DNA of 64,000 nucleotides, taken from NCBI GenBank assembly GCA_937146725.1, contig CAKZRU010000041.1, positions 5,154-69,153 of the forward strand, given 5' to 3'. The notes below the pieces were generated by a model. That model was not told the origin of the DNA and searched no databases. It saw nothing but the letters and a program-made list of their open reading frames with translations. Both the position numbers and the translations under genes were made by a program. The first letter of the stretch is position 1, and the number at the start of each line of letters is the position of its first letter. Positions 5,635 through 58,166 of the stretch are shown here, piece after piece. The DNA comes from an uncultured Myxococcales bacterium. Lineage in GTDB: Bacteria; Myxococcota_A; Bradymonadia; UBA7976; VGTA01.

Positions 5635-5794
5635 AGATGACACAATCAATCACTTGTAAATAAGCAATAAACTTGATGCTTATCATGACATTTTGCTTTA
5701 ATTGATCTTGCTTGGCTCTCTAGTTTTGCTTTAGATGCCTCAACGACCAAACTTTATCTTATTTATGACTTTCGATACGGACGAACCTTACCTT

Positions 5795-30157: not shown

Positions 30158-33100
30158 TCAGTGATAAATGGTGACTTTAAGGATATTTTGATCGTAACTC
30201 AATACAGCAAAGTCATCCTTACCATCATCATTCATATCACCCGCTCCGGAAGTGGCGATCTTTTGTCCGCTCGGTGCTGATGCACTGAGTGATACACCAC
30301 GCCCCACAGTGACTTGGTCAGAACCAAAGCTTGCATTACCATCATTATAGAAGACAAAGACCTGCTCGGCATTACTGAGTGTATTATCTTCATTATTGGC
30401 AATCAAGTCCATAAAGCCGTCCCCATTAATGTCTCCTGCCAAGTCAAAACGTGAACCAAAGCGATTTTCACCACGGCGGAAGCAATCGAGTTGCTGTAGA
30501 TCACTTGACATCACTACCATAAGCTTATCTGACGCATTACCTACCACAAAGTCAGCGTTATCATCACCGTTAAGATCTACACCACCTCTGAGCATCGTTC
30601 CAAAACTTGTTGGCCCTAGCTCAGCACAGGGATTATCCACTTCGATAAAGTCTGGATTTGTACCATCAAAAGTCAGTTCTCCACCATTCGTAGCAAGCGC
30701 TGTTTCTAGGGTGCTGCCACCGTAGACTAAGTGGAGGTGGTCAATGCTGTCACCGGCCGAGAAGATAAGCTCAGAAGTACCATCTCCATCAAGATCACCA
30801 GCGGTCGATACTTGTACACCGGCATTATTGTAGGTGCTTGTCAATTTGTAATATCCATCAGAAACACTTGGTGTCACAACATCTTGAATCACGGCCGGCC
30901 ACTGGCTACGACCTTCAATGATGGTGACAAAGGTGTTGTAGTTAAAGCTAGGATCAAAACCACCACCAAGCACAATATCATCACAACCAACCGCAAGACC
31001 TTGAACCAAATCACCCCGATTTGATAGAGCAACGCGTGAGTGTCCGGGACTGAAAATAACACTATCGGCTGTGGCCAATTCGCTATTAGTACAGTTTTGA
31101 GCTAACGGACAGCCAAAGTATACGGCAAAGGCTGACCCATTAAAATCGAGCGGATAGCCCGCTACAACAATGTCAGGTGCTCCGTCTCCATTCACATCAC
31201 CACCACTAGTGACCTCAATACCAAAGAGTAAATTACTCATTTCTACGGGGATATTGAGTGCCAAGGTGTTGCTATTTAATACACTTAAATCATCCATACC
31301 CTTAATGATTAAGACATCACTGATAAAGTCTGGACCAACGGATTGGGCCGAGTTGACCATTAGGTCATCATAGCCATCACCATCAAAGTCGCCGATTGAG
31401 TTAAGAGCGTTTCCTGTGGTGAAAGTCGGCTGGGTACTATCCCAATTACCGCTTCTTGGGTTAAAGTTCACAGTGGCTCGGTTGAGTCGAGTATCGATGA
31501 GCGCTGAACGAACTGCACCAAGGCGACCAACATCATCACGAGCGCGAAGGGATAAGTAGAAACTCTTGTTAGGCGGCAAGTTCTCGATAGACAAAGTCTC
31601 AATGGCACCCGGCTGAACGCTTGGAATAAGTTCATTAAGCAAACGAGCAGACTCCCAAGTTAACTCACTGTTGATATTGTTGAAAGACCAACGAGCCTCA
31701 TAGGCTTGAACTCGATCTCCACCACTTTGATCATCACCAGGTGCAGTAAAGCTTACTTCAACTTCTGGAATACGCTTGTTCATCACAGTTGGGTTAAGTG
31801 TGATTCCGGTGGGGGCTGAAGGGTCAGCGATAATGGTAAAGCTTTGGCAACGCTCATTTTGTGCTTCATCACTGATGCATAATTGGTAGCTTGCTTCTCT
31901 TGCCGGTGGGTTAAGCCCAGTGATACGTAGTTCAACTGTATCTTCATTGGGCGCAGGGTCATCTACACTAATCTCTAAGGGGAGCTGTACGCCATCAATC
32001 GAGATTCGAGCGCTACGAGAAGACGTGCTGGGTGCTTCTGTAACGGTTGCAACAAGTGTCATTTGCTGTCCGGCTGCTTCAGGGTCATTATCCTGTAACA
32101 CCTGTCTTACGCCTTCTGCATTAAGGGCAGGCGAGGTAATCACAATCGAGCTTGGGGCAATTAAGTCAACTCGGATATTTTTGCCTAAAGATGAGGTGAC
32201 TTCATTGTTTAAGCGAATTCGAGTTGAAACACTGTGTTCCCCTTCTGGAATTGTAACTTCGCTGAAAACAATATCTCCGGTACTTTGATCGATAGTTGTT
32301 GAGCCCAAAAGTTCACTACCATCTAAAAGTAACTCCGCCTGAGCGCTTGCACATTGTGGATCCAACAGATCAACACGACCACTAATATCAAGTCTTAGCT
32401 TGTTATCAGCAGTGACGATCCCCTGATTTGGCCCAAGAAGTTGGCCACTAATCAGACTGGTAATTTGACTGCTACACCCATCGATCGCAATATCGATATT
32501 CTTTGCTTGCGAAGTACTTGGGTTTTCGCAGGCATCTTCGCTTCTGACACTTAAGGCATGTGGCCCCGGAGGTAGGGTTAAGACCGCTGTGAGAGTTTGA
32601 CTATCAGCCACAGTAGTGATTAATTGAGCAGGTAAAGTGGGTAAGCGCTCCTCACCACTGTAGATTTTTAGTTCTTGGCCGGCTTCTAGTCCAGTAGCGT
32701 CAATACTTACATTTACTTGGAAACCGTCAGCTGGAGACTGATTTGCATCATCACTGGCAAGCAGAGTTTGTCCATCATCAACCCCATTTAAGACCAAAGT
32801 TGGTGCGCTTAAGTCTACTGAGATTGGCACAGACAAAGGTGCAGACCAATCTGGACGATCACCAATCGTATTAAAGCCCGCTACGCTACCAGCGTTACCA
32901 CAGCTATCTTCGGCAACAAGAGATAAGAGATGATTGCCCTCTGATAAAAGAATGGTCGAAAAGGTAAAGGTAGGATTTGAGACCGTTTCTCGTTGTACGA
33001 TGATGCCATCAAGGCCCAAGCTTAAAGAGACCGGTTCGCCTTCTACCCAACCAGAGCTTACTTGAGGTTGATACTGAGCACCGGCCTGTGGCTCAAGATC

Positions 33101-36100
33101 ATCCGCGATATTGAGACATTGGTTGGCCATAGGTCGTAATAACTCGGGAGTAGGTGCTTCAGTGTCGATGAGCAGTAAAAGAGGAGCAAAGCTTTCATCA
33201 TCTTGGTTGGGTAAAGAGTTACCGACAACATCAGTACCTGCCAGATAAATAAAGTGTTCACCTTGAGGCAAGTTTACATTTGAGATAGAACCACGACCTT
33301 CCGATATTTCAACGCTACCTAAGGGAACTTGGCCTGGCAAAGAGAAAACTCGGACTAAGCGGTTATCTTCAATACCATTGACTTGGAAATCAACAGTAAA
33401 ACTTGCGTTACGACTGCTTGCACTCGCATTGATGCGCTCTTGTGCGTTAATGCATTGATCATCATTAAGATCTTCGGCAATCGAGATTTCGACTACGTTT
33501 GGCGCGGTGCAATCACTTAGAATTGAAATGGTATTTGAACGTAAATCAACGCCATTTTCACGAGCGACTAAGGAAATGTCATGCTGGCCGTCACTTAAAG
33601 TGATTGGACAGCGGATATTGTTCCCCTGCGCACTTGTACTACATTGACCTTGAGAAGCATCGCTTTGATTACCACATAAGGGAGACAAAGCACCGGCTTG
33701 GTTAGAAGCACATAAAGCGAACTCAACATTTTCAATATCGGTAAAACCCGCACTTCTTACATCAACTTCGATTTGACAGCCGGCTGTTTCTAAATCCTGA
33801 TCTTCGCTTCGGTTAATTAAGGCTTGATCTCGAGGCTCAATAATCACAATGCTCACGTTGGTATCACCTTCGATATTTTGACTAAACTCTTGTGTGTTTC
33901 CACAAGCATCGCTCACTGTCGCGGTAAGTAGTTGACTGCCATTGGTATAGGTGAGTAGGCCTAAATCTACAGTTTCACATTCTTCTTCTCCTAAAGTGTT
34001 AGTGATGGCCTCTTCACTTTGGGCTGGAATGGTGGCTACAGTCATTACTTGTCCTGCTGCACCACAGACTCTTACGCGAGTTGGAAACTGAATGCCGGGG
34101 ACGAGGCCATCATTATCATCCAGTAGATCAAGAATTGTATCGGGAGCCGGTAGAACGAGTTCTACTTCAGGTGGAGTTCGGTCAACTGTAAGGCTGAATT
34201 GCTGAGACATGGGTAAGCCACTCACATCCATCGCAACAAACTCTAAATCGCATTGGCCATCCGGTAAGGTCACTGTTGAAAAGGTAATTAAGGCCGATTG
34301 TCCAAGATTGATTACTGCACCATTTTGCTCATCAACAAGTTCTCGTTGATCATTGCCTGGTAACTGACAATAAACTTGGACCTGAGGAATACTATTTGCA
34401 GCTAAAGCATCAGCATCGACTTCAAAGCGCATTTGGAAGCCTGGTGCTGATGAACGATCTTGAACTTGATTATTTAGACATTCAGCGACATCACTTAACG
34501 GACGGACCGAGAGCAGAGGCCTAATTTCATAGCTGGTAAGATTTAGGGATTGACCACGTCTTTGCTCTGATACTGGCGTTAAGATGATCTCTGTAGCTCC
34601 ATCAAGACTTGTCGGTAGGGTTACAGCGAGCTCACCTAAACCAAGAGAGTCTAAGGTCAGAGGGCCAACAATCATGCTTGGCTCAGCATTTACATTAAGC
34701 TCGAAGTTTACGATCTCATTTGCATTACCGCTCAGTGAGAGAGATATTTGTAAGCCTTCGGTTTCATTGTCAATATCATTAAGCAAGGTGACTCCAGAAC
34801 CATCGCTCCAATTGGTGACTCTGAGTGGTGCCTGACAGCCTTCTGCATTGAGAGTAAAGTCAAACTCACTGCTTGCGCCCGCACAGTCGATGACCTGCAT
34901 GTTGATGGTGTTTTCACCAGGAATAAAGTTATAGCTAGGTGTTCTTACAATCCCTTGGGCTACTTGATCAGTACAGGTGGGTAAGCTTCCGTTTAAGCTA
35001 AAGCAAACTCTTTCAGCACTTTCATCACTCAAAGAGAACTCAACCGAAGATTGAATGCAGTCTGAAAGATCAGAGTTTTGGTCATTGGCTAAGGTGAGTG
35101 AGCCATTGGCCGGATTTAGAGGGCCTACTACCGGTACTTCGTTATCGATCAGTACTTCGATAGGATCACTAGGGATAACAGAAATATCAACCCCACCGCT
35201 GGTGCCTGAAATGACTAAGCTGTAGCGACCATCGGCCAATTGCTGATTGGTTAAATCCAAAGAAGTGCTGTAAAAGTTGCTATCTTGAGCCTGTAGCTGT
35301 CCAAAGCGGGCAACCTGACCGCCTTCACTATACAAAGTATAATTGAGCTCGGTATTACCTTCCGAGAATTGACGAGCTTCTCCACCAATAAAGAATAAGT
35401 CAGAAAAACAAGCATAAGTTCGACCATTGGAATTAGGCGCAACAATAGGATCAAGGATTTCAAAAATAGGTTCATCTGTAATGACCGGATAAAATGAGCT
35501 CGCTAAAACCGGTTCGTTTTGTCCGGTCATAGCGACCGGCTTACATGAGTAAGTATCGGCTCTTGGGAATGAGACAAAAATCGGTCCTTGATAGACACCA
35601 GATTCACCTTCGACAGCGCTTAATTCACTACGTAAAACGGAACTAATGCTAAGGACTTCAGAAGAACCACCTTCACCTCGTGCACAATGGATTTCAATCG
35701 GATAATCCTCACTCTCTCTTTGATCTTCGACTCTGATCGTAAATTGAGTTTGTAAACCTTCATTTTCTGGATCGATATCAGTGTTGATAAGCTCGAGTTG
35801 AGCCGGATCTACGATTGATAAACGTGGGGTTACACCATCAAAGCAAAAACTGTAACTTGGGGTTTGATGCACGCCTCCACATTGATCATCACCACTAATT
35901 GTAATTTGATGGCCACAGAGATAATCGCCTTCAAGTTCGATCGTAAAACGACCTTGACCGTCTAGCGTCAGTGTTTCAGGCGCATTTTCGAGTGGCGGCT
36001 CAATGGTTAATCTAACCTCTGAGTTTGCAGGAAGATTAGAAGTAAAGCCATTAATTCTCCACTTTAAAATCGCTTCGCCTTGAGCATTAAAGCTAGTGAT

Positions 36101-37228
36101 GGCTTGACTTAGGTTTCTTCGGTTAACACCGATTTCTTCAAATTGATCAATAGAAAGTTCAGGATCTGTTGTATCAACATCAAGCACATAGGTATCAACA
36201 TTAGCCCCAAGTCCATTTTCACTTTGTGCTCGTGCGCTAATTGTATTTTCACCATTATTTAGGGTCACAACAAGGCTCGCTTCTCCATCCACCACAGTGG
36301 CCGGAGTATAACTTTGTCCGTTCACTGTCCAAATGACTTGTTCGCAGTCACTTGTTGCCTTGAGTTCAGCTTGTAGTCCTGGACGGTCAGGATCAACATC
36401 AGCGGTTGCACCAATATCACAACCATCCATTGGCGCAGGGCTCAAAATAAGTTCACACTCACTTGCATTTACCTCAACCGATACACTCGCCTCGAGTAGA
36501 CCATTAGGACCGGTCGTAAATGCGCGCAATTCATGTGTGCCTGATAAAGGAAGGGTAACACTTTCAAAAAAAGCTTTGCCATTTTCAACTTGAGTGCGAA
36601 CTGGATTTCCACCATTCACTTCGACTTCCACAAGATTACTGAGATTGGCGACTGGCCCATTCACTTCGATTTCAACCGGAACTTGTACGCCATTGGTTAA
36701 GTCATTATCTAGGTCATCACTTGCAGTAAAGATTGTTCCTTCAACCGGATTAATGAAAGAGATAGAGCTTTCATTGACACCGCATAAAGGGCTTTCGGGG
36801 TCAATCTCAACAGTGATCGCAAGGGTTGCGCTAGCGCGTTCAAGCTCACCGTTTAAAAGTTTTGCTTCAAACTCATAGTTACCAGCACTTAAAGCAAGAT
36901 CACTAAAGATGACCCGACCATCATCGGTTAAGGCTCGACGTTGGGCTTCAAAGCGACTTGGCATTGCGCTCAGCTCAATGACAAGATTATCTAATTCAGA
37001 AGCCGGGGCTTGTGCGCTTAAGCTAACAGCGATATCAATTTCATTGGGTGTAGATCTTTTAAGATCATCGGCACACCCAAGTATACTATCGGCTTCGGGT
37101 AATATAAACGAGAGTTCATAGCTCTCGGGCTTAATAGGTTCATCATCACAGGCAACCATGCCGAAAAGACTTAGGCAGAGAGCCCAACAAAGCGACAGTG
37201 ATTGAAAGTGTTGTTTTTCAGTGTTCAT
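30158..37228 (-). CDS. giant (2356 aa) surface lipoprotein adhesin with tandem Ig-like/cadherin-like beta domains, an FN3-like domain and C-terminal FG-GAP (integrin-alpha-like) beta-propeller repeats
   Basis: Lipobox LCLSLFGMVAC; long beta-rich repetitive body; FN3-like PSAPTGITLNP...; FG-GAP/Ca-binding repeats DFDGDGYDDLMV, DVNGDGAPDIVV, DLDGDGTSELIFS, DLNGDDNADFVV, DINGDGFMDLI, DMNDDGKDDFAV. Confidence 0.85.
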   Translation of the reverse strand: MNTEKQHFQSLSLCWALCLSLFGMVACDDEPIKPESYELSFILPEADSILGCADDLKRSTPNEIDIAVSLSAQAPASELDNLVIELSAMPSRFEAQRRALTDDGRVIFSDLALSAGNYEFEAKLLNGELERASATLAITVEIDPESPLCGVNESSISFINPVEGTIFTASDDLDNDLTNGVQVPVEIEVNGPVANLSNLVEVEVNGGNPVRTQVENGKAFFESVTLPLSGTHELRAFTTGPNGLLEASVSVEVNASECELILSPAPMDGCDIGATADVDPDRPGLQAELKATSDCEQVIWTVNGQSYTPATVVDGEASLVVTLNNGENTISARAQSENGLGANVDTYVLDVDTTDPELSIDQFEEIGVNRRNLSQAITSFNAQGEAILKWRINGFTSNLPANSEVRLTIEPPLENAPETLTLDGQGRFTIELEGDYLCGHQITISGDDQCGGVHQTPSYSFCFDGVTPRLSIVDPAQLELINTDIDPENEGLQTQFTIRVEDQRESEDYPIEIHCARGEGGSSEVLSISSVLRSELSAVEGESGVYQGPIFVSFPRADTYSCKPVAMTGQNEPVLASSFYPVITDEPIFEILDPIVAPNSNGRTYACFSDLFFIGGEARQFSEGNTELNYTLYSEGGQVARFGQLQAQDSNFYSTSLDLTNQQLADGRYSLVISGTSGGVDISVIPSDPIEVLIDNEVPVVGPLNPANGSLTLANDQNSDLSDCIQSSVEFSLSDESAERVCFSLNGSLPTCTDQVAQGIVRTPSYNFIPGENTINMQVIDCAGASSEFDFTLNAEGCQAPLRVTNWSDGSGVTLLNDIDNETEGLQISLSLSGNANEIVNFELNVNAEPSMIVGPLTLDSLGLGELAVTLPTSLDGATEIILTPVSEQRRGQSLNLTSYEIRPLLSVRPLSDVAECLNNQVQDRSSAPGFQMRFEVDADALAANSIPQVQVYCQLPGNDQRELVDEQNGAVINLGQSALITFSTVTLPDGQCDLEFVAMDVSGLPMSQQFSLTVDRTPPEVELVLPAPDTILDLLDDNDGLVPGIQFPTRVRVCGAAGQVMTVATIPAQSEEAITNTLGEEECETVDLGLLTYTNGSQLLTATVSDACGNTQEFSQNIEGDTNVSIVIIEPRDQALINRSEDQDLETAGCQIEVDVRSAGFTDIENVEFALCASNQAGALSPLCGNQSDASQGQCSTSAQGNNIRCPITLSDGQHDISLVARENGVDLRSNTISILSDCTAPNVVEISIAEDLNDDQCINAQERINASASSRNASFTVDFQVNGIEDNRLVRVFSLPGQVPLGSVEISEGRGSISNVNLPQGEHFIYLAGTDVVGNSLPNQDDESFAPLLLLIDTEAPTPELLRPMANQCLNIADDLEPQAGAQYQPQVSSGWVEGEPVSLSLGLDGIIVQRETVSNPTFTFSTILLSEGNHLLSLVAEDSCGNAGSVAGFNTIGDRPDWSAPLSVPISVDLSAPTLVLNGVDDGQTLLASDDANQSPADGFQVNVSIDATGLEAGQELKIYSGEERLPTLPAQLITTVADSQTLTAVLTLPPGPHALSVRSEDACENPSTSQAKNIDIAIDGCSSQITSLISGQLLGPNQGIVTADNKLRLDISGRVDLLDPQCASAQAELLLDGSELLGSTTIDQSTGDIVFSEVTIPEGEHSVSTRIRLNNEVTSSLGKNIRVDLIAPSSIVITSPALNAEGVRQVLQDNDPEAAGQQMTLVATVTEAPSTSSRSARISIDGVQLPLEISVDDPAPNEDTVELRITGLNPPAREASYQLCISDEAQNERCQSFTIIADPSAPTGITLNPTVMNKRIPEVEVSFTAPGDDQSGGDRVQAYEARWSFNNINSELTWESARLLNELIPSVQPGAIETLSIENLPPNKSFYLSLRARDDVGRLGAVRSALIDTRLNRATVNFNPRSGNWDSTQPTFTTGNALNSIGDFDGDGYDDLMVNSAQSVGPDFISDVLIIKGMDDLSVLNSNTLALNIPVEMSNLLFGIEVTSGGDVNGDGAPDIVVAGYPLDFNGSAFAVYFGCPLAQNCTNSELATADSVIFSPGHSRVALSNRGDLVQGLAVGCDDIVLGGGFDPSFNYNTFVTIIEGRSQWPAVIQDVVTPSVSDGYYKLTSTYNNAGVQVSTAGDLDGDGTSELIFSAGDSIDHLHLVYGGSTLETALATNGGELTFDGTNPDFIEVDNPCAELGPTSFGTMLRGGVDLNGDDNADFVVGNASDKLMVVMSSDLQQLDCFRRGENRFGSRFDLAGDINGDGFMDLIANNEDNTLSNAEQVFVFYNDGNASFGSDQVTVGRGVSLSASAPSGQKIATSGAGDMNDDGKDDFAVLSYDQNILKVTIYH

Positions 37229-42276: not shown

Positions 42277-44706
42277 TTGGATAGATTAAGTATAAGTTTC
42301 CATTATTTGGTGTTATCAACAAAGTATGTGGAACAAACGATACACCGAGGGAGACTTCTATTGTGTCAAGGTCAAATGAGTGCTTTGGATAGTGCTCAAT
42401 CACAGTTGTGTTTAAGTGATCAAGTAAATTCTTATCCCCGGTATTCTAGAGTACCAAGAGTTACCAAGCCATTCATTTACTTGCTACTCACTTACTTGTT
42501 ATTTATTGGGCCAGGTATTCTCTTCGCTTCTGCACAAACTGCAAACGCAGACCGAAAGAGTTTACAAGTACACCCTAGTATCCAGTTTGCCACCGAACTC
42601 GATGATGGATATGGGGCAACTACACCTGCTTTTTTCAATCTACTCAGTTTTTCCGGAGAAGAAGGCTATTGGAAAAATGCTCAGGTTGAAATCAAGTTTC
42701 CGATCAGAGAAAAAGATCTTTTACTTGCTAAGTCTCTTAAACAATTTACGACATCTAGTTCTGCACAGACAAGCGAAGCAAGTAGTATCCAGAGTATGCT
42801 TCCAAAACTAGATTATCATGCAGTGGGACAACTTGAAGCCATCAATGATTTGGATCCACCTATTTGGGTACTTTGGCTGCCTTTGTCTTCTGAGCAGCTC
42901 AATAAACCGGAACTCAAAGCCGTGGAACAGGTCTTAAGTGTACTTAGAGACTATGCCGAACCGGAAAGTATTGTATATATTTATCAAGGACAGTTGATTC
43001 CCAAATCAACCAATATCAGCTTTAGAGTTGCTGACTTTAATCTAACTAAGATCAAAAAACTCAGAGTTAATGATGACTCTGATCATAAAGAATACAGTCA
43101 ATTTTCGCTTGAGGGCTTTGGAGAATTACTCAAAGCGGTTCAGTTTCAATATAACTCACCCAATGATCAGGTTCTCAGTAAAAGTAGCTATAAGTGTGGA
43201 AGAGCCTGTCGGGAAATGATGCCAACCCTTAGGGTCATTGCTTTAAATCATGGGGAACTTGATTTAAAAACTCAAATACCAAAACGGTTTAAGGCTCTTT
43301 TTGAATCCATTCACTACCCTGAGCATTTTCTGTATAAACCGGTTCTTACCATCGTGAATACCGCAGAGCAAAGTATTGAAAAAAATAATCTATCTGTACC
43401 TTGGTTAAAGAACTTTAGTTTGCCAAGTTTTGAAAAAGATATTCTCGATCTTAACTTTTCTTTCGTACAAAGAATTAAGCAGATTAGATCACATGCAAGT
43501 TCAATGTATTATTTAACAGCACCGATCTCTATTCCTACATACTTTTGGGGCCAAGAAAGTATTGAGATATCAACCCGTGTGAGTCAAGGGGAGGAAAGTG
43601 TTGTTCAAAGCGCTCTTCTCAAGTTTGCTGCACTCAATAATGATCATCTCAGTCAAAAGCGAGTTGAGAAATCAACTGTCTATCAAGATCTTTTAGAAAA
43701 AGCTCGAAAACAGTTCATTCAGCCATCGACAAGACCTTTAATTACCAAAGTTCTACTCGGATTGATTTGGTTAGCTGTTGTTATGGCTATTTTTGTCATT
43801 TTTATTCGCTTACGAAAGACTCGTACTCGAGTGACTTTAGACCATAATATCAATATACAGACAGAGCCTTTAATCAATCATGTAAATGTTGATCAATTTG
43901 ATAAAAGGGATAGCGATCAACAGCCAGCAGAGTATGTTGACAGTATAAGCCAAGCGCCTAGAGCACAAGATTTGAGTCCTGATGAGTATGCACGTCAAAA
44001 AAGACAGGAAAGAGAAAGGTCATTACCTCGGAAAAAGCCTTCACAATTGAGCCCAATGGTTAATCCTGAAGATCCTTCAACTATGCCTGCCCCCGCGGCT
44101 GAAGCAAAGATTTCCGATCAACCACAAAACCTAATGAACCCAAATCAAGAAACTTCTTTTGAGCCTTTAGAATCGATTGACCCCAATGCAGAGATTCCTC
44201 AACTTGGTTCTCATGCTCAGTTCAGTTCACTAGCTGATCATGCTCAGTTCAGTAGCATAAGTTCTATGGAAGCTAGTTTAATTGCATCAGAGATGGACTC
44301 AAGCGAGGCTGTGACCCTAAAAAGTACACCTATTCTTGCAGGGTTATATGCAGAAGCTGGACCGATGAAACGCTTTTTCTTTTTAATCAGAAGAAAGGTG
44401 TCCATGGTTGGACGAGATCCAAGTAATCACTGTGATTTACCGCCTGATGGTACACGCGCAGATCGGCAAATTAGTAGAAGACATTTTGAGCTTACTCTAG
44501 TCGAAACGGATCGTTGGGAAGTAAGATGTGTGTCAAGCCAAGGAATTACGGTTAATCAAACCATGCTAAGTTTAGGTGAAAGTGGAACCATTAAAGATAA
44601 CGACTTAATCTATTTAGGAGAAAGTACTTTACGTTTTCGCTGTTCAACCGCATGGAAAGCACATCAAGTAAAGGCCCACTTAAAAATCATTCCACTGCAG
44701 AGCTAA
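42277..44706 (+). CDS. bitopic membrane protein with large periplasmic N-terminal domain and cytoplasmic C-terminal FHA domain
   Basis: Signal/anchor FIYLLLTYLLFIGPGILFASAQT; mid TM LITKVLLGLIWLAVVMAIFVIFI; C-terminal FHA (MVGRDPSNHCDLPPDGTRADRQISRRHFELTL...NDLIYLGESTLRF). Confidence 0.6.
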   Translation: MDRLSISFHYLVLSTKYVEQTIHRGRLLLCQGQMSALDSAQSQLCLSDQVNSYPRYSRVPRVTKPFIYLLLTYLLFIGPGILFASAQTANADRKSLQVHPSIQFATELDDGYGATTPAFFNLLSFSGEEGYWKNAQVEIKFPIREKDLLLAKSLKQFTTSSSAQTSEASSIQSMLPKLDYHAVGQLEAINDLDPPIWVLWLPLSSEQLNKPELKAVEQVLSVLRDYAEPESIVYIYQGQLIPKSTNISFRVADFNLTKIKKLRVNDDSDHKEYSQFSLEGFGELLKAVQFQYNSPNDQVLSKSSYKCGRACREMMPTLRVIALNHGELDLKTQIPKRFKALFESIHYPEHFLYKPVLTIVNTAEQSIEKNNLSVPWLKNFSLPSFEKDILDLNFSFVQRIKQIRSHASSMYYLTAPISIPTYFWGQESIEISTRVSQGEESVVQSALLKFAALNNDHLSQKRVEKSTVYQDLLEKARKQFIQPSTRPLITKVLLGLIWLAVVMAIFVIFIRLRKTRTRVTLDHNINIQTEPLINHVNVDQFDKRDSDQQPAEYVDSISQAPRAQDLSPDEYARQKRQERERSLPRKKPSQLSPMVNPEDPSTMPAPAAEAKISDQPQNLMNPNQETSFEPLESIDPNAEIPQLGSHAQFSSLADHAQFSSISSMEASLIASEMDSSEAVTLKSTPILAGLYAEAGPMKRFFFLIRRKVSMVGRDPSNHCDLPPDGTRADRQISRRHFELTLVETDRWEVRCVSSQGITVNQTMLSLGESGTIKDNDLIYLGESTLRFRCSTAWKAHQVKAHLKIIPLQS

Positions 44707-51673: not shown

Positions 51674-52726
51674 TTACAGCTTCGAGATTTCAATAATCTC
51701 AATATCTTGAAGACCTTTGAGAGGTGTTGGTCCCAAGCTTTTAGTACTCAATGTGGGTAGGTCTGAGTTTGTTTTGATCGCATTTTGAAGGGCTAAAGCA
51801 TGCTGTTGAGTCACAGCAATAGTATGAGGAGCGCTCACCCCACATAAACGAGCGGCAACATTCACCGTGTTACCCCATACATCAAATTGATAGCGTAAAT
51901 CGCCAACAATTCCCGAAACTAAAGGACCAATATAGACACCCGCTCGAGCACTCCAATCTGGCGTAATTTTAGGAGTGACTGTACACATTTCAAGAGCGGC
52001 AAGCGAAGCAGCTAATAAGGGATCATCAAAGCGAGGTTTGATATTTAGACCGGCAGTGGCCATAAAGGCATCACCGATGGTTTTGATCTTTTCTACTTGG
52101 TAGTAGCTTGCAATTTTTTCATACTCTTTAAACAAGGCATCTAAGCGTTCAACAACTTTGGTTGCAGGATGCTTTTGGCTGTATTCAGTAAAGCCGACTA
52201 CATCACAAAAAATGACCGCAACAGCTTCATGGGATTTGGCTGCAACTGATCCGGATGTTTTAAGCTCTTGGGCGATGGATAAAGGTAAGATGACTTCTAA
52301 GAGTTGATCGGTCTGTTGTCGTAGTTGGCTCTCTTGGCGTAAACTTAGTTGTAAAAGTAACTGAGATCGAACTCGAGCCCTTAAAATCGCAGGATTGATA
52401 GGTTTAGATACATAGTCGACAGCCCCCAATTCTAACCCTTTTTGCTCATCACTATGGTTGGAAAGTCCGGTTAAAAAGATAATGGGGATATGTGCTATAT
52501 GATCTGAGTTTTTCATCGCCGTTAACAGTTCATAACCATTAAACTCCGGCATATTCACATCGCTTAGGACTAGGTCAGGCGGTGACTGTTCCATTAGCTT
52601 TAAGGCCTGCAAAGGTTGGGTGCTCACTTTGAGTTGGCATAAACCTTTTAGAGCCTTGGTAATCAAGCCAAGCGTTAGGGGGTCATCATCAATAATAAAT
52701 ACTGTTGCTGGGTAAGGTTCTTGCAT
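51674..52726 (-). CDS. response regulator with class III adenylate/guanylate cyclase output domain
   Basis: REC: VFIIDDDPLTLGL...LVLSDVNMPEFNGYELL...IPIIFLTG; CYC: AVIFCDVVGFT...KIKTIGDAFMATAGL...ARLCGVSAPHTIAVT. Confidence 0.8.
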   Translation of the reverse strand: MQEPYPATVFIIDDDPLTLGLITKALKGLCQLKVSTQPLQALKLMEQSPPDLVLSDVNMPEFNGYELLTAMKNSDHIAHIPIIFLTGLSNHSDEQKGLELGAVDYVSKPINPAILRARVRSQLLLQLSLRQESQLRQQTDQLLEVILPLSIAQELKTSGSVAAKSHEAVAVIFCDVVGFTEYSQKHPATKVVERLDALFKEYEKIASYYQVEKIKTIGDAFMATAGLNIKPRFDDPLLAASLAALEMCTVTPKITPDWSARAGVYIGPLVSGIVGDLRYQFDVWGNTVNVAARLCGVSAPHTIAVTQQHALALQNAIKTNSDLPTLSTKSLGPTPLKGLQDIEIIEISKL

Positions 52727-53019
52727 CTGCAGATCACTTCGCTTCTAAAAATAACTGACGATTACTAACTGAATAAACAACAGCTTTATAAACTGACTAT
52801 AAGCTAAAGACTAGTATCATGTGTATGTGATCTTTTTACAAGCTTAAAGCTGTTAGAAGCTTAAATCTGTAAGCCACTGAACTTCGATCAATTTTCTCCA
52901 TTTAAATCAGAGCTCTTTATTGACCTAGGTGTGCTCTTTTTTATAGTCTATGTTTTTAAAATAAAGAAAAGATCATCATCTTTCTTATTCATAACCTATT
53001 TAATTAAATAAAGATAAAT

Positions 53020-53958
53020 ATGATGAACTCTGCAGCAGCCACCGCCTTTCAAACAAGTCTTGAGTCAAATTACCATTTGGCTAGTCTTGAGGAACTTCTT
53101 ACCCAACATCAAATTACGACGCAAGACTTGGAATTGGTCCGTCAATACGGTGAGTATATAACACCAAAGTTTCCCTTCTATGTGGATCGCTTTTACTCAT
53201 GGATGGAAAATATGCCTGAGTTTAAGATCTTTTTTAAAGATCAAAAAAAGCTCTTACGAGTGCAAGGGTCTCAAAATAGATTTTGGGAAATCTTTTTTGA
53301 AGCAGAGGTGAATGATCACTATCTTGAGATGCGTAGAAAACTTGGTGAAGTTCATGCTCAGATAGGCTTATCACTTCCGGCTTATTTTGCGGCCTTGAGC
53401 GTTTCTCAAGATATCTTACTTTACGAGCTTTATGATGGTGATCTTACAGAATCACAGCGAATGGCTTGCATTCAGGCCTGTAACAAGCTCATTCAGCTCG
53501 ATGCCTCATTAGTGGTTGAAGCCTATGCAAAACTGAGCAATGAGCGCTTATCAGAGCAAGCCAAAGCAATGATGGAAATGTCAACGCCGGTGACCTCATT
53601 ATGGGATAATATTCTCATGCTTCCGGTGGTAGGGATTATTGACTCAAAGCGAGCTCAAAATATGATGAGTTCTGTGCTTCATAAAATTGCCGAAACTCGA
53701 GCAAAGGTATTTATCATTGATATTGGCGGTGTGTCAGTGGTGGACACTGCGGTTGCAAATCATCTAATAAAGATTACCCAAGCGGCTCGTTTAATGGGCT
53801 GTGTGTGTTTGCTTTCAGGCGTATCTCCAGCCATAGCTCAAACTACGATTGAATTAGGCATTGATGTAGGAAATGTTTTAACACGAGCAACCATGCGTGA
53901 CGCGCTAGAGGAAGCCTTTAGGTTGATCAATGTTGTTGTCTCCAAAAAGGATGCTTAA
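53020..53958 (+). CDS. stressosome sensor RsbR-like protein: N-terminal sensor-globin (protoglobin-like, candidate haem-binding) domain + C-terminal STAS domain
   Basis: Globin-coupled-sensor-like region YVDRFYSWMENMPEFKIFF...LGEVHAQIGLSLPAYFAAL (candidate proximal His); STAS: LPVVGIIDSKRAQNMMSSVLHKIAETRAKVFIIDIGGVSVVDTAVANHLIKI. Confidence 0.7.
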   Translation: MMNSAAATAFQTSLESNYHLASLEELLTQHQITTQDLELVRQYGEYITPKFPFYVDRFYSWMENMPEFKIFFKDQKKLLRVQGSQNRFWEIFFEAEVNDHYLEMRRKLGEVHAQIGLSLPAYFAALSVSQDILLYELYDGDLTESQRMACIQACNKLIQLDASLVVEAYAKLSNERLSEQAKAMMEMSTPVTSLWDNILMLPVVGIIDSKRAQNMMSSVLHKIAETRAKVFIIDIGGVSVVDTAVANHLIKITQAARLMGCVCLLSGVSPAIAQTTIELGIDVGNVLTRATMRDALEEAFRLINVVVSKKDA

Positions 53959-53970
53959 GAAAGCTGATCA

Positions 53971-54369
53971 ATGGTCATGAGAACGGTACAATCTTCGGCT
54001 CAAAAGCTCAATGAATCTCTTCGCTTAGTCTTTACTGAGATTCAAGATACACTGATTTTAACCTTTCCTCCTAGTTGTGGCTTTTTAAGCCAAGAGCTAG
54101 AAGATATCAAGTCTTCGACTCTTCAGCGTTGTGCTCAAAAGCAATATAACTCGGTAATCTTTGACTTAAGTGCGGTTGAGTTGATTGATTTAAGCGAGTG
54201 GGAAGCACTTCGTAAGCTCAATCAAAGTATTAAGCTCATGGGGCCAGATTCATGGTTTGTAGGCTTAAGAACGGATTTGATTATTACCTTGATTTCATTG
54301 GATGCTAAAACCCAAGACCTAAATTATGCCTTAGGTGTAGAAGAAGCATTGACTGAAAGCTTAGGATAA
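53971..54369 (+). CDS. STAS-domain protein, RsbS-like stressosome scaffold/antagonist
   Basis: 132 aa STAS fold; conserved phosphorylatable Ser region IDLSEWEALRKLNQSIKLMG; position between RsbR-like and RsbT-like genes. Confidence 0.65.
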   Translation: MVMRTVQSSAQKLNESLRLVFTEIQDTLILTFPPSCGFLSQELEDIKSSTLQRCAQKQYNSVIFDLSAVELIDLSEWEALRKLNQSIKLMGPDSWFVGLRTDLIITLISLDAKTQDLNYALGVEEALTESLG

Positions 54370-54373
54370 AAAC

Positions 54374-54973
54374 ATGAAAGCTAAGTCACCTATTGTCGAC
54401 TTATCTTATATAAATAAAGACGATCATTTATCGGCGGCTAAGGATCAGAAATATCCGCTTGATAATTGTCCACTTGAACGTGGGTTAGTCAGTATTATGA
54501 AAGATCGTCAAGAAAAGTCTGAACCTTTATTTCTCTGCCATCTGCACAATGAACTAGATATTAATCGAGCACGTTATTTACTTAAGTCCTTTGCATCAGA
54601 GTTAATCATGCAGAATCAACCTTTAGTAGATCACTGTGTCATCTCAACGGATACGATTGCTCTGACACGCCTTTTAACCGCTTGTAACGAGTTATGCTGG
54701 AATGCGGTAAAGTACGCAGGTGGCGGTGTACTAGCACTGTGGAGTGAAGTGACTCAACAAATGATTACACTAACTCTGCAAATTGCCGACGAAGGACCGG
54801 GGATTGCAGACTTAGAGTGGGCATTTCACGATCATAATAGCAGTGGGGGAACTTTGGGTCTTGGCCTTTCGGGAACAAAACGCTTAGTGGATTGGCTCAA
54901 CATTGAAAGCCCAATCCAAGGTCTAGGCTATGGCACCTTAATCACAGTGCAAAGCCAGTGGAGAAGAACATGA
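54374..54973 (+). CDS. RsbT-like GHKL serine kinase / anti-sigma regulatory factor
   Basis: HATPase_c Bergerat motifs ELCWNAVKYAGGG (N box), IADEGPGI (G1), GTLGLGLSGTKRL (G2); 4 nt after RsbS-like stop. Confidence 0.7.
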   Translation: MKAKSPIVDLSYINKDDHLSAAKDQKYPLDNCPLERGLVSIMKDRQEKSEPLFLCHLHNELDINRARYLLKSFASELIMQNQPLVDHCVISTDTIALTRLLTACNELCWNAVKYAGGGVLALWSEVTQQMITLTLQIADEGPGIADLEWAFHDHNSSGGTLGLGLSGTKRLVDWLNIESPIQGLGYGTLITVQSQWRRT

Positions 54974-57966
54974 ATAAAGAAGTCACTGTCGCATTGGGAT
55001 GGATTCGTAGTTATCCAGAAGAGGCGAGAAATGAGTCTAGAGCACGTTTATTAAAGACTCTTAAAGGTCCATTAAAACAAAGCTCTCATCAAGCGAGTCA
55101 AGTGATTGTTTTGCTGTCTGAAATGCTAAAAATACAGCAAAAACAATGGTCCAAAGAAGAATGTCAAATCGTGGGAGATAGTCAGTTTAAGCAGAGCTTA
55201 TATTTTGAGCCCGAAGGAAGTGGTTTAAGATTGGTGATGATCCTGAACTTTGATCGTTTTAGAATGAGTCCTATGCTGACTGAAAGCTTAGAAAGTAAAT
55301 TAAGTTATTGGTCGGCCTTAGGCTTTGACTACACCGACCAAATCAATAAAAATCATCTTGGGGCAGATACGATTAGGGTAATCAAGCTAGCACTCTCTTT
55401 TAAGCAAAGACTTACGCAAGCGCTGATTGCTGACTGTAAAAGTATTTTAGCACAGCGAACTCTTACTGAATTAACCGCTAGTCTCCAAGCGCAAAATAGC
55501 TCACTTGAAGCACATAAAAGAGGTCTTGAAGAAGCGGTTGAGCGCCGGACTGAGGAATTGAGGGTAGCCAAGCAAAAAGCAGAAGAAGCGACCGAGGCCA
55601 AGTCGATGTTTTTAGCGAATATGAGCCACGAGATTAGAACGCCGATGAATGCGATTATTGGCTTATCTCATCTTGCCCAACAGCAAGCCACAGAGCCGGT
55701 ACAAGTAGATTACTTAAGTAAGATTCATACAGCGGGGACTTCACTGCTTACAATTATCAACGATATCTTGGATTTTTCTAAAATTGAAGCCGGAGAAATG
55801 AGCTTTGAGTCTGTGGAATTTGACTTGGATCACTTGCTCAATAATTTAACCGCTTTGACTGCTCATTTGGCTTCAAGTAAAGGCGTGGAGCTCAGTGTTA
55901 TTGTTGACCCTAATGTACCGAGTATTCTCAAGGGTGATCCTTTAAGACTCAATCAAGTTTTAGTCAACCTGCTTAATAATGCAATCAAGTTTACTCAAAA
56001 GGGCGAAGTCAGCTTATACATCACTTATCAAAATCAATCCGAGCAAAATTCTGACCCAATAGCTCAGCTTTTTTTCAAGGTGAAAGATACTGGCATTGGG
56101 ATGAGTTCTGAACAGGTAAATCGACTCTTTAAACCTTTCTCCCAAGCGGATGAATCAACCACCCGTAAGTTTGGTGGAACTGGTTTAGGCCTAACGATTT
56201 GCCAACGCTTGGTAGAACTGATGGGTGGAAAGATTTTTGTTAAAAGCGAATTGGGGCGGGGAAGCGAGTTTAGTTTTACCTTGCCTCATCTGATTAATAC
56301 TCAAACAGAAAGTAACCTTAGTCGCTTAGAAAAAGTATTTAAAGAAGGCTTGAGCTTTAGAGGGCAAAGGGCGCTAGTGGTCGAGGACTCTCCGGCCGCC
56401 CAAGAAGCGATTGAAGCGTTGTTAAACCGCTTACATTTTGATGTTGAGATTGCTTCTGGCGAAACTGAGGCCCTGAGTCGCTTTCAATATGCTCTCGAGC
56501 AGGATCTTGGATTTTCTTGGATTTTCTTGGACTGGAAGTTGGCGGATGGAAGTGGGCTGAGTCTTTTGAAAAAATGGGGGGCTATTAATAATTTAAAAAT
56601 TATTCTTGTGACGGGCTATGGTGATCACGAACTAAAGCAAAGAGCCAAAAAGATGGGGGCAATGGCCACCTTACAAAAACCTCTTACGGCCTCTCTTTTG
56701 GTTGATACCTTATCAGATGTTTATTTTAATCGAAAAGTTAGTGAACAAAAACTCGGCTCAAACTCGCTAAAACCAACAGTGAACTCACAAAAACAAGCAG
56801 ATCATCACTGGCATGGTTTAAAGGGGAAAACTGTGCTGTTGGTTGAAGATAATGAGGTTAATCAACTTGTGGCTAGTCAAATGCTTAAGCAAGTGGGTTT
56901 AAAAGTACTGATTGCTAATCATGGACAAGAAGGGGTTGATCTAGCTTTACAGCATCAAGCAGAACTTGCTTTGGTATTGATGGATATTCAAATGCCACAG
57001 TTGGATGGTTATCAAGCCACTCAAAGGTTAAGGTCTCACGGCTTTGACTTACCGATTATTGCGATGACAGCACATGCGATGGCTGAAGAAAGAAACCGCT
57101 GCCTAAAGGTAGGGATGAACGATCATTTGACCAAGCCGATTAATCCGCAAGTTTTATATAAAACAGTCAGCGAATGGATCTCTAAAAGCCAAGATCAAGT
57201 CGAAGTTCATAAACCAAGCGAGGATTCTACAAGTGAAGCTTCTGCAGAACTCACTCAAGCTGAGTCCATTCAAGCTGAGTCTACTCAAGCCGAGTCTACT
57301 CAAGCAAATAAAGCTCAATTTCACATTGATACTGTTTTAGCAGAGCCTATTTTGGATATGGATTTGGGACTTGCACTAACCGGTGATGATCTGTCATGTT
57401 ATTTACAGATGTTACAACTGATTCATAAAAGCTTTGCAGAAGCGAAAGAGTTTGCTTCGAGTCTTTTGGTAGATCAATCTCACCAAAGTCTACTTTCACT
57501 TAATGAAGCACAGTCTATAAAGCTTGAAAGACTTGCTCACACCCTTAAAGGAACCGGGGCTCAATTAGGCTTCAAAAGAATTTCTCGCATCAGTTCTTAC
57601 ATCGAAGAGTCATGCCATGGCGAACAAAGGGTCCAAAATGCCTATCTTAAGTTTTGGCTAGAATCACTGCAACAAAGTCAGCTTGAGATCGATAGAGTGA
57701 CGCAAGAAAACGCTGTCCTTGATGAGAAAAATGAGTCAGTAATAGCTGATATTCAGCCTATAAACATTCAAGATCACTTGGAAGAGTTAAGGCAACTGAC
57801 TCAGGCGCTTTTGGCAGCAGATTTTGAAGCGATCGATCAAGTACAAAATCTAGAAAGGATTTTGAAGCATCTTTTAGCCCAAGAGGCAGAGTCTTGGTTT
57901 GCCCAAGTTGATTGCTTTGATTTATCTAGTGCTGGAGAGCATTTAAGAGCATTGTTGGAATCGTAA
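54958..57966 (+). CDS. hybrid sensor histidine kinase (HisKA-HATPase-REC-REC-Hpt)
   Basis: H box MSHEIRTPMNAIIGLSHL; N/G boxes LLNNAIKFT, DTGIGM, GGTGLGLTICQRLVELMGG; two REC domains (LVVEDSPAAQE...; VLLVEDNEVNQLV...LVLMDIQMPQLDGY); Hpt HTLKGTGAQLG; start overlaps RsbT-like stop by 16 nt. Confidence 0.85.
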   Translation: MEKNMNKEVTVALGWIRSYPEEARNESRARLLKTLKGPLKQSSHQASQVIVLLSEMLKIQQKQWSKEECQIVGDSQFKQSLYFEPEGSGLRLVMILNFDRFRMSPMLTESLESKLSYWSALGFDYTDQINKNHLGADTIRVIKLALSFKQRLTQALIADCKSILAQRTLTELTASLQAQNSSLEAHKRGLEEAVERRTEELRVAKQKAEEATEAKSMFLANMSHEIRTPMNAIIGLSHLAQQQATEPVQVDYLSKIHTAGTSLLTIINDILDFSKIEAGEMSFESVEFDLDHLLNNLTALTAHLASSKGVELSVIVDPNVPSILKGDPLRLNQVLVNLLNNAIKFTQKGEVSLYITYQNQSEQNSDPIAQLFFKVKDTGIGMSSEQVNRLFKPFSQADESTTRKFGGTGLGLTICQRLVELMGGKIFVKSELGRGSEFSFTLPHLINTQTESNLSRLEKVFKEGLSFRGQRALVVEDSPAAQEAIEALLNRLHFDVEIASGETEALSRFQYALEQDLGFSWIFLDWKLADGSGLSLLKKWGAINNLKIILVTGYGDHELKQRAKKMGAMATLQKPLTASLLVDTLSDVYFNRKVSEQKLGSNSLKPTVNSQKQADHHWHGLKGKTVLLVEDNEVNQLVASQMLKQVGLKVLIANHGQEGVDLALQHQAELALVLMDIQMPQLDGYQATQRLRSHGFDLPIIAMTAHAMAEERNRCLKVGMNDHLTKPINPQVLYKTVSEWISKSQDQVEVHKPSEDSTSEASAELTQAESIQAESTQAESTQANKAQFHIDTVLAEPILDMDLGLALTGDDLSCYLQMLQLIHKSFAEAKEFASSLLVDQSHQSLLSLNEAQSIKLERLAHTLKGTGAQLGFKRISRISSYIEESCHGEQRVQNAYLKFWLESLQQSQLEIDRVTQENAVLDEKNESVIADIQPINIQDHLEELRQLTQALLAADFEAIDQVQNLERILKHLLAQEAESWFAQVDCFDLSSAGEHLRALLES
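57253..57305 (+). repeat. 15-nt in-frame tandem repeat x3 (encodes QAESI/QAEST/QAEST) inside hybrid kinase linker
   Basis: caagctgagtccatt / caagctgagtctact / caagccgagtctact. Confidence 0.75.
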
Positions 57967-58063
57967 AAGATGAGCATTGTGGGCATAATGTAAAAAGTCA
58001 CAAAGCAATTCGTAGATTTATCTTGACTACAAGCTTTCGTCTTGATAAACCCATGCATCACAT

Positions 58064-58136
58064 ACGGGGGTAGCTCAGTTGGTAGAGCCACGGATTCCAA
58101 ATCCGTAGGTCGCAGGTTCGAACCCTGTCCCCCGTG
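58064..58136 (+). tRNA. trnW: tRNA-Trp (anticodon CCA)
   Basis: Cloverleaf folds by hand: acceptor acggggg/cccccgt, D arm gctcagttggtagagc, anticodon stem acgga/tccgt with loop ttCCAaa, T arm gcagg-ttcgaac-cctgt, discriminator G; no encoded CCA. Confidence 0.85.
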
Positions 58137-58144
58137 TTCTAATA

Positions 58145-58166
58145 GGGAGCTATGCTCCCTTTTTTT
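58145..58166 (+). terminator. rho-independent terminator after tRNA-Trp
   Basis: gggagc-tat-gctccc hairpin (58145-58159) followed by ttttttt (58160-58166). Confidence 0.6.

Follow-up and report, generated by a model that had tools for sequence, protein, structure and literature searches.

The closest described relatives of the system presented here are the stressosome loci of Vibrio vulnificus and Vibrio brasiliensis, in which the genes follow the order rsbR-rsbS-rsbT-rsbX-D1-D2 (PMC4976288, PMC9237108, PMC10014275). In V. brasiliensis the R-S-T-X genes are followed by a PAS-HisKA-HATPase-REC-REC-Hpt hybrid histidine kinase (D1) and then by a REC-HD-GYP regulator (D2). The RsbR homologues of both species bind haem and O2 and control RsbT (PMC4976288, PMC9237108), and in species with a sensor-globin RsbR an rsbX gene comes after rsbT, giving a highly conserved RSTX module (PMC9237108). 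In the RsbRST-RsbU-sigma B system of Bacillus subtilis and the RsbRST-GGDEF system of Moorella thermoacetica, a STAS core sequesters a GHKL kinase which, once freed, activates an effector that has a docking domain at its N-terminus, together with a helical linker (PMC12143880). Here we describe a related cassette of five genes from an uncultured Myxococcales bacterium, found in a stretch of 64,000 nucleotides (64 kb) of contig CAKZRU010000041.1; this whole stretch is called the window below. Its source is a contig derived from a metagenome (ENA ERZ928115 / PRJEB22134). The cassette is chromosomal, in a genome of about 43% G+C, and consists of a gene for a response regulator-adenylate cyclase, divergent from rsbR, rsbS, rsbT and a hybrid histidine kinase gene. 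We consider it probable that this Vibrio-type stressosome, the kinase and the receiver-cyclase together make up an O2-responsive route to cyclic AMP (cAMP), without RsbX in the cassette.

Compared with the Vibrio locus, the window has the same haem globin-STAS RsbR, matched over its whole length, RsbS and RsbT in the same order, then a hybrid kinase of HisKA-HATPase-REC-REC-Hpt architecture whose N-terminal domain is homologous, and its output is likewise a second-messenger enzyme fused to a receiver. However, the RsbX gene for a PP2C phosphatase is missing, the kinase is devoid of a PAS domain, and the regulator is a REC-adenylate cyclase encoded divergently upstream, whereas that of Vibrio is a REC-HD-GYP protein encoded downstream. 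Furthermore, RsbS and RsbT are far more diverged than RsbR, and RsbT has extra N-terminal and internal segments. The logic of a sequestered GHKL kinase would be common to the window and the B. subtilis and Moorella systems, but the candidate docking domain of the window is not RsbU_N (no Pfam match; an RsbW-like alpha/beta fold and not a helical bundle is predicted), the cassette contains no sigma factor, RsbV/RsbW or PP2C, and the sensor is a haem globin in place of the non-haem globin of those systems. Judged by its RsbR, RsbS, RsbT and D1-type kinase, the window system belongs with the globin stressosomes of the Vibrio type. A reading made earlier from the letters of the window (the sequence-only reading) had seen in it a Vibrio-type stressosome feeding a two-component system, which agrees both with the match of RsbR to the solved V. 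vulnificus stressosome (E=1e-105 to 7O0I) and with the R-S-T-X genes followed by a hybrid kinase in V. brasiliensis.

All five open reading frames (ORFs) are present in the ORF listing of the window, and the coordinates, domain architectures and gaps given by the sequence-only reading were all borne out by this listing and by Pfam. Indeed, 12 nt separate rsbR from rsbS and 4 nt separate rsbS from rsbT, and rsbS, rsbT and the kinase gene are densely packed, the stop codon of rsbT and the start codon of the kinase gene overlapping as ATGA. The arrangement recurs elsewhere. RsbR homologues were taken from a 5.8-billion-protein collection, and a further 80 loci came from genomes with names. In the collection, the RsbR proteins most closely related are 68-76% identical and all metagenomic, while the best match among the species representatives of GTDB reaches 56%. 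The RsbR of the window itself was not returned; its 90% cluster is represented by a 127-amino acid (aa) fragment (P0243), hence the lack of a near-identical match does not mean that the sequence is missing from the collection. The same five-gene cassette was found in six lineages (window/L086, L004/L005, L001/L002, L003, L088 and L089), whose RsbR proteins are 60-76% identical and whose neighbouring genes make up at least five distinct sets: L004/L005 are syntenic with the window, while L001/L002, L003, L088 and L089 each have unrelated flanks. Since the same five genes stand in the same order on independent contigs with unrelated flanks, the arrangement is not due to chance, and the link to the divergent REC-cyclase that had been proposed is strengthened by this conserved adjacency. 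Furthermore, four other clades have REC-cyclases next to globin-RsbRST(X)-kinase loci, divergent in L049, L067 and L028 and, in L023, directly downstream of the kinase and co-directional with it, which is the position of the Vibrio REC-HD-GYP regulator D2. That the cyclase is the output of the system is indicated mainly by its recurring in this way, in various orientations and taxa. The divergent placement is not peculiar to the cyclase variant, as two loci (L033:7746-13898 and L053:7458-8609) carry a REC-HD-GYP gene divergent upstream of rsbR, as the window carries its REC-cyclase.

The cyclase gene (51674-52726, minus strand) encodes 350 aa with a receiver at aa 9-120 (about 52367-52702, minus strand; Pfam Response_reg, E=5e-25) and a class III cyclase domain at aa 162-318 (about 51773-52243, minus strand; Pfam Guanylate_cyc, E=3e-34). 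The receiver has the whole phospho-acceptor set, with the acidic pocket DD13-14, the phospho-Asp D56, T86 and K108. Aligned to the mammalian adenylate cyclase C1 and C2 domains, the cyclase domain holds the complete catalytic set in one chain, with the metal-binding D175 and D219, the adenine-specifying K215 and D282 and the transition-state residues N286 and R293. These catalytic residues are conserved in all 13 stressosome-linked cyclases, ten of which have a receiver, in each case with its phospho-acceptor set, the other three being without REC. In guanylate cyclases, Glu and Cys or Ser occupy the specificity positions. Given the complete catalytic set with the adenylate-signature Lys and Asp, the predicted product is cAMP and not cyclic GMP (cGMP); of the output proposed beforehand, cAMP or cGMP rather than cyclic di-GMP (c-di-GMP), the first part is thus retained and cGMP is dropped. 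A special kinship of the receiver to the Vibrio D2 receivers was also considered: it scores 75-106 bits against 28 of 28 D2-type receivers and no more than 61 bits against the other receivers of the loci, but PleD from the PDB, at 92 bits, is on a par with the D2 receivers, so the comparison is not decisive and this kinship was set aside.

The rsbR gene (53020-53958, plus strand) encodes 312 aa, with a sensor globin at aa 22-171 (53083-53532, plus strand; Pfam Protoglobin, E=4e-29) and a STAS domain at aa 196-282 (53605-53865, plus strand; Pfam STAS, E=1e-12). Its match to chain B of 7O0I, the RsbR of the solved V. vulnificus stressosome, covers aa 22-308. An alignment of the N-terminal domain to HemAT (1OR4), chosen beforehand as a test of the globin assignment, is gap-free across the haem pocket and places Y59 (codon at 53194-53196, plus strand) on the distal Tyr70 and H112 (codon at 53353-53355, plus strand) on the proximal His123; the motif LGEVHAQIGL, where the proximal His had been suspected, does hold it. 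Y59, H112 and Ser209 are invariant in 22 globin-RsbR homologues and Thr243 is found in at least 90% of them. By the offset of the 7O0I alignment, Ser209 and Thr243 correspond to Ser199 and Thr233 of V. vulnificus RsbR, which are named as phospho-sites (PMC9237108). With both the HemAT-type His/Tyr pair and the STAS phospho-acceptor positions in place, RsbR is by its residues a globin-coupled sensor of the Vibrio type. By homology to the proteins of 7O0I, PMC4976288 and PMC9237108, it may be expected to bind haem and O2 and to build a pseudo-icosahedral core with RsbS. From the gas sensing suggested earlier, O2 is thus favoured by the homology to the V. brasiliensis and V. vulnificus RsbR, while NO is left without specific support.

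The gene that follows after 12 nt (53971-54369, plus strand; 132 aa) encodes a strongly diverged protein with a single STAS domain, scoring 27.5 bits against a Pfam cut-off of 22.6, and its position and single-domain architecture mark it as RsbS-like. Its matches to solved RsbS chains are weak (6JHK, E=3e-4; V. vulnificus RsbS, 7O0I_a, E=8e-3), and it is 38-50% identical to the gene at the same position in L001, L003 and L004. Eighteen globin-type RsbS were aligned (L001, L004, L006, L010, L012, L024, L030, L033, L038, L041, L050, L053, L059, L071, L073, L079, L082 and the window), and the canonical phospho-Ser column (B. subtilis Ser59) is occupied by Ser or Thr in only three of them. In the RsbS of the window and its clade (L004, L001), a Ser or Thr is observed one residue past this column.

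RsbT (54374-54973, plus strand; 199 aa as maximal ORF) matches HATPase_c at 31.8 bits (cut-off 26.4) and HATPase_c_2 at 27.1 bits, and is 34-39% identical to the RsbT of V. hepatarius and Aeromonas schubertii in tblastn (E of about 1e-17 to 1e-19). The alignment with the RsbT of 18 loci shows the N box (E..N..KY), the G1 box (DEGPG) and the G2 box (GTLGLGLSG) all present; the loss of kinase motifs that the sequence-only reading had named as the point on which this assignment could fail is therefore not observed. By these boxes and by its place after rsbS, the protein is a small GHKL serine kinase of the RsbT type. Compared with the Vibrio RsbT of about 140 aa, it has an N-terminal extension, the reality of which depends on the start codon, and small insertions. 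The first ~41 codons of the ORF (54374-54496) have no counterpart in the other RsbT of the clade (152-179 aa), while they are kept open in relatives at least 90% identical (199-202 aa). The extension could be lineage-specific, or the real start could be Met42.

In order to search for RsbX, a PP2C profile built from 52 loci was run on the six-frame translations of 86 sequences (85 loci and the window). A match was obtained in 70 of the 86, but none in the whole 64-kb window or in L001-L005, and no PP2C was seen either in the gene calls of L086, L088 and L089. Indeed, the single-domain PP2C gene that stands right after rsbT in RSTX modules has no place in the window, where rsbT overlaps the kinase gene. 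Among the remaining sequences that gave no match, several (L008 and L049, for example) are on contigs that stop shortly downstream of rsbR. The "complete stressosome module" claimed earlier is thus correct for R, S and T and overstated in that the RsbX feedback phosphatase is missing from the cassette. A further locus, of Vibrio sp. S9_S30 (L027), is on an intact contig without RsbX between rsbT and the kinase gene, and the two loci of V. penaeicida (L012, L013) have RsbX together with the same gene order and sizes as L027; this looks like an independent loss inside Vibrio.

The kinase gene (54970-57966, plus strand) encodes a D1-type hybrid histidine kinase of 998 aa. The start codon is more likely ATG 54970, which is preceded at 6 nt by a GGAG (54960-54963), overlaps the rsbT stop and is used by public gene calls (P0121, 998 aa, 100% identical). 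The 16-nt overlap and 1002 aa reported earlier hold if translation starts at GTG 54958, which lies 12 nt before. In the 1002-aa numbering, Pfam places HisKA at 214-279, HATPase_c at 326-444, the two receivers at about 466-586 and at 626-737, and Hpt at 845-914; the translation shows the H-box SHEIRTP and the Hpt motif HTLKG, and the best NCBIfam matches, BarA and TorS, are all below their cut-offs. Hence, directly after the stressosome genes, the window has the same kinase core as the V. brasiliensis D1, with HisKA, HATPase_c, two receivers and Hpt. No Pfam match to a PAS domain was obtained between the N-terminal domain and HisKA of the window kinase, and the region before HisKA counts 196 aa versus about 283 aa in the Vibrio type.

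The N-terminal part of the kinase consists of an unannotated domain (54982-55416, plus strand; aa ~9-153) and a helical linker (aa ~154-195) which joins it to HisKA and is strongly conserved, with the motif ELTAELxAQNxxLExH. Residues 1-195 gave nothing above noise in Pfam or NCBIfam (N-domains of seven and four proteins scanned, respectively), and RsbU_N, the helical docking domain for RsbT, gave no Pfam match even at E<=10. A word-indexed search with the N-terminus alone returned zero matches, as its relatives have too few exact words in common with it, and the full-length kinase was used as query in its place. Among the fetched loci, tblastn matches to the N-terminus of the window kinase are confined to L001/L002 and L004/L005, and its own cross-clade blastp matches lie in the C-terminal linker only (aa ~129-190). 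The kinases of L003 and L001, however, align with those of RSTX loci (L006, L007, L050, L023) over 171-177 aa at 27-32% identity, and by these tblastn links together with hhalign (52-sequence profile) and hmmsearch the D1 kinases have in common an N-terminal domain of about 150 aa. In hhalign, the 52-sequence kinase N-terminal alignment matches the N-termini of the alphaproteobacterial cyclases and of one PP2C protein in the RsbU position with a probability of 98% (E=1e-13) and RsbT with 89%, while the cyclase/PP2C N-termini match RsbT with 97%; a control of the kinase alignment against PP2C gave 2%. From sequence alone, the likeness to RsbT is marginal.

An AlphaFold2 model of the N-domain, computed from an 11-sequence alignment, is of high confidence, with a pLDDT of 83.7 and a pTM of 0.75, and has the topology beta-alpha-alpha-beta-beta-alpha-beta-beta-alpha. 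The predicted fold is alpha/beta and GHKL-like, as in SpoIIAB, RsbW and SiaB, and not a helical bundle. The N, G1 and G2 motifs were not found in the domain, which would make it a pseudokinase; it differs from SpoIIAB, RsbW and SiaB both in this and in being fused N-terminally to output enzymes, not standalone. When 1.84 billion representative proteins were searched with a profile, the domain was found in 77, always at the extreme N-terminus. Ten of the 77 were examined with Pfam and comprise nine histidine kinases, hybrid or not and one with PAS, and one class III cyclase. Two N-domain kinases picked regardless of context directly follow genes for globin-RsbR, RsbS, RsbT and PP2C. In three alphaproteobacterial metagenome-assembled genomes of Hyphomicrobiales type (L079:2124-5584, L081:9001-12449 and L084:1931-5411), an RSTX module is followed by a fusion of ~340 aa joining the same pseudokinase-like N-terminal domain, here of ~140 aa, to an adenylate cyclase, with no receiver and no two-component relay; judging by these domains, this would be a one-step design from stressosome to cAMP. 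According to a broader proposal, which we hold tentatively and at somewhat less than even chances, the N-domain is a degenerate RsbT/RsbW-like pseudokinase that serves as a general adaptor of Gram-negative stressosomes and, in the clade of the window, drives an RsbX-free O2-to-cAMP pathway. In such a role, as part of histidine kinases, adenylate cyclases and PP2C phosphatases, it would either form a pseudo-dimer with RsbT after its release or attach directly to the STAS core. This would account for the observations that V. vulnificus D1 has no RsbU_N domain and that no RsbT-D1 interaction was found there by two-hybrid (PMC9237108).

The route that we favour would run as follows. RsbR, with its haem sensor globin and STAS domain, and RsbS would form a Vibrio-type core in which RsbT is held while the haem is O2-bound, and loss of O2, or another change of haem ligand, would free or activate RsbT; in V. 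brasiliensis, ligand loss frees RsbT from the RsbR/RsbS core (PMC4976288). RsbT would then act on the co-translated hybrid kinase, most likely by contact with the N-terminal pseudokinase domain and the conserved helical linker. The RsbU of B. subtilis is activated when RsbT binds its N-terminal domain and orders a coiled-coil linker (PMC12143880), and the N-domain is proposed as the docking site because it occupies the position equivalent to that domain and is followed by a conserved helical linker. Binding of RsbT, or of the STAS core itself, to the N-domain may switch the kinase on or off. The kinase would autophosphorylate and pass the phosphate from His to Asp, to Hpt and to the receiver of the divergently encoded regulator, whose class III cyclase domain, once phosphorylated, would change its rate of cAMP synthesis, upwards or downwards. 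With no RsbX in the cassette, resetting would call for a phosphatase encoded elsewhere, unless the STAS core undergoes no cycle of phosphorylation and dephosphorylation.

Several points weigh against this route or parts of it. All its protein-protein steps are ones that we infer, and the likeness of the regulator's receiver to D2 receivers does not show a cognate pairing with the kinase, since PleD lies within the same range of scores. RsbS is strongly diverged, as its E value of 8e-3 to V. vulnificus RsbS indicates, and has Leu at the canonical phospho-Ser column with a Ser at +1 (IDLS). This Leu, though, is a trait of the whole group, given the three of 18 RsbS with Ser or Thr there, and does not set the window apart from the Vibrio type. 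The RsbX of this genome could be encoded outside the 64-kb window. As for the N-domain, smaller curated alignments lower its match to RsbT to 62% over 34 columns, Foldseek against the PDB gave no match at E<=1e-3, and the negative two-hybrid result in V. vulnificus bears directly on the proposed contact. Finally, one locus with an RsbR 68% identical to that of the window (L087:1-6376) has R-S-T-kinase without RsbX and no cyclase in its two upstream gene calls. In the place of the REC-cyclase, L087 has two minus-strand genes of 287 and 171 aa with no Pfam match.

This last locus is also what one would expect if the stressosome and hybrid kinase formed the functional unit and the REC-cyclase were a mere neighbour, the target of the kinase being encoded elsewhere. 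The cyclase gene, which lies on the other strand and has a promoter region to itself, and the lack of specificity in the receiver's similarity to the Vibrio D2, fit such a view as well. However, six lineages hold the adjacency although their flanks fall into at least five unrelated sets, REC-cyclases occur at globin stressosome-kinase loci in four further clades, once co-directional in the D2 position, and the cassette has no other regulator gene; we regard a mere neighbour as quite unlikely. It would likewise be unlikely, if by a little less, that the R-S-T proteins of the clade are no longer phosphorylation-cycled, RsbT being a mere binding partner or the STAS domains binding the pseudokinase in the manner of SpoIIAA and SpoIIAB, so that O2 would control the kinase without any kinase activity of RsbT. 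RsbX is missing in every clade member examined, Leu replaces the canonical Ser of RsbS, and the fold predicted for the kinase N-domain is that of the STAS-binding kinases SpoIIAB, RsbW and SiaB. Yet RsbT keeps all its ATP-binding motifs and RsbR keeps Ser209 and Thr243, most of the globin loci that do contain RsbX are also without the canonical RsbS Ser, and an RsbX gene could lie elsewhere in the genome.

It is very improbable that the product of the cyclase domain is cGMP or some other cyclic nucleotide, or that the domain is a catalytically dead scaffold. Pfam cannot tell adenylate from guanylate cyclases and several of the solved structures matched are guanylate cyclases, but both metal Asp, Lys215/Asp282 and Asn286/Arg293 are present, and conserved in 13 of 13 stressosome-linked cyclases. 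We retain the route from a Vibrio-type stressosome through the hybrid kinase and the REC-cyclase to cAMP as the probable one.

The 293-bp intergenic region between the cyclase gene and rsbR (52727-53019) is not conserved in sequence and does not align among clade members. A sigma-70-like promoter match upstream of rsbR (TTGACC-16-TATAGT, 52920-52947, plus strand) agrees at 10 of 12 positions and is weak, and promoter-like sites are no more numerous in the region than in shuffled sequence. A CRP-like site was considered and dropped, as the TGTGA-N6-TACAA-like string is poor and the region unalignable in the clade. The flanks are ordinary chromosomal genes, with an SDR protein, a TPR protein and an RluA-type pseudouridine synthase upstream, and tRNA-Trp, polynucleotide phosphorylase (PNPase), a ferredoxin-type protein and a transglutaminase-like protein downstream. 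The tRNA-Trp (CCA) gene, the sole Rfam match, lies at 58063-58137 (plus strand) between the kinase stop and pnp, and is followed by a terminator-like hairpin with a T-run (58144-58160), which suggests that the stressosome-kinase operon ends before the tRNA. The pnp gene is not preceded by rpsO. Elsewhere in the window there are two very large ORFs (30158-37228, minus strand, and 8139-12998, plus strand); one of the encoded proteins (2356 aa) has FG-GAP and bacterial Ig-like (Big_13) repeats and the other (1619 aa) strong DUF7107 repeats, and genes near them, at 956-3433, 5735-8071 and 42277-44706, encode a VWA protein, an OmpA-domain protein and an FHA-domain protein, respectively.

The coupling of a receiver to a class III adenylate cyclase has a precedent in the cyanobacterial CyaC-type REC-cyclases, in which a phospho-receiver controls the cyclase. 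In Leishmania HemAC, a globin couples O2 to cAMP (cited in PMC4976288). Unlike in these proteins, the globin and the cyclase of the window are on separate proteins, with a stressosome and a four-step phosphorelay between them. For eleven downstream architectures, PMC9237108 gives a list of domain abbreviations in which there is no cyclase domain, and full-text literature searches returned no paper tying a stressosome to an adenylate cyclase output, an earlier mention being possible in the output-module catalogue of Pané-Farré et al. 2005. The proposed adaptor, if true, would thus give an RsbX-free O2-to-cAMP pathway, a stressosome output not described in the literature searched.

A good understanding of stressosomes is confined to those that feed sigma B. 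To their known outputs, which are sigma factors, c-di-GMP and phosphorelays, the cassette adds a predicted cAMP. Furthermore, RsbX can be lost throughout a clade from the RSTX module, supposed to be fixed, which bears on whether signalling needs the phosphorylation cycle. How RsbT acts on the downstream two-component system of Gram-negative bacteria is the gap that the N-domain candidate addresses. The RsbW-like pseudokinase domain of about 150 residues may be the docking site for RsbT or the stressosome, and it is the most interesting lead, because it applies also to the D1 kinase of the experimentally tractable Vibrio system.

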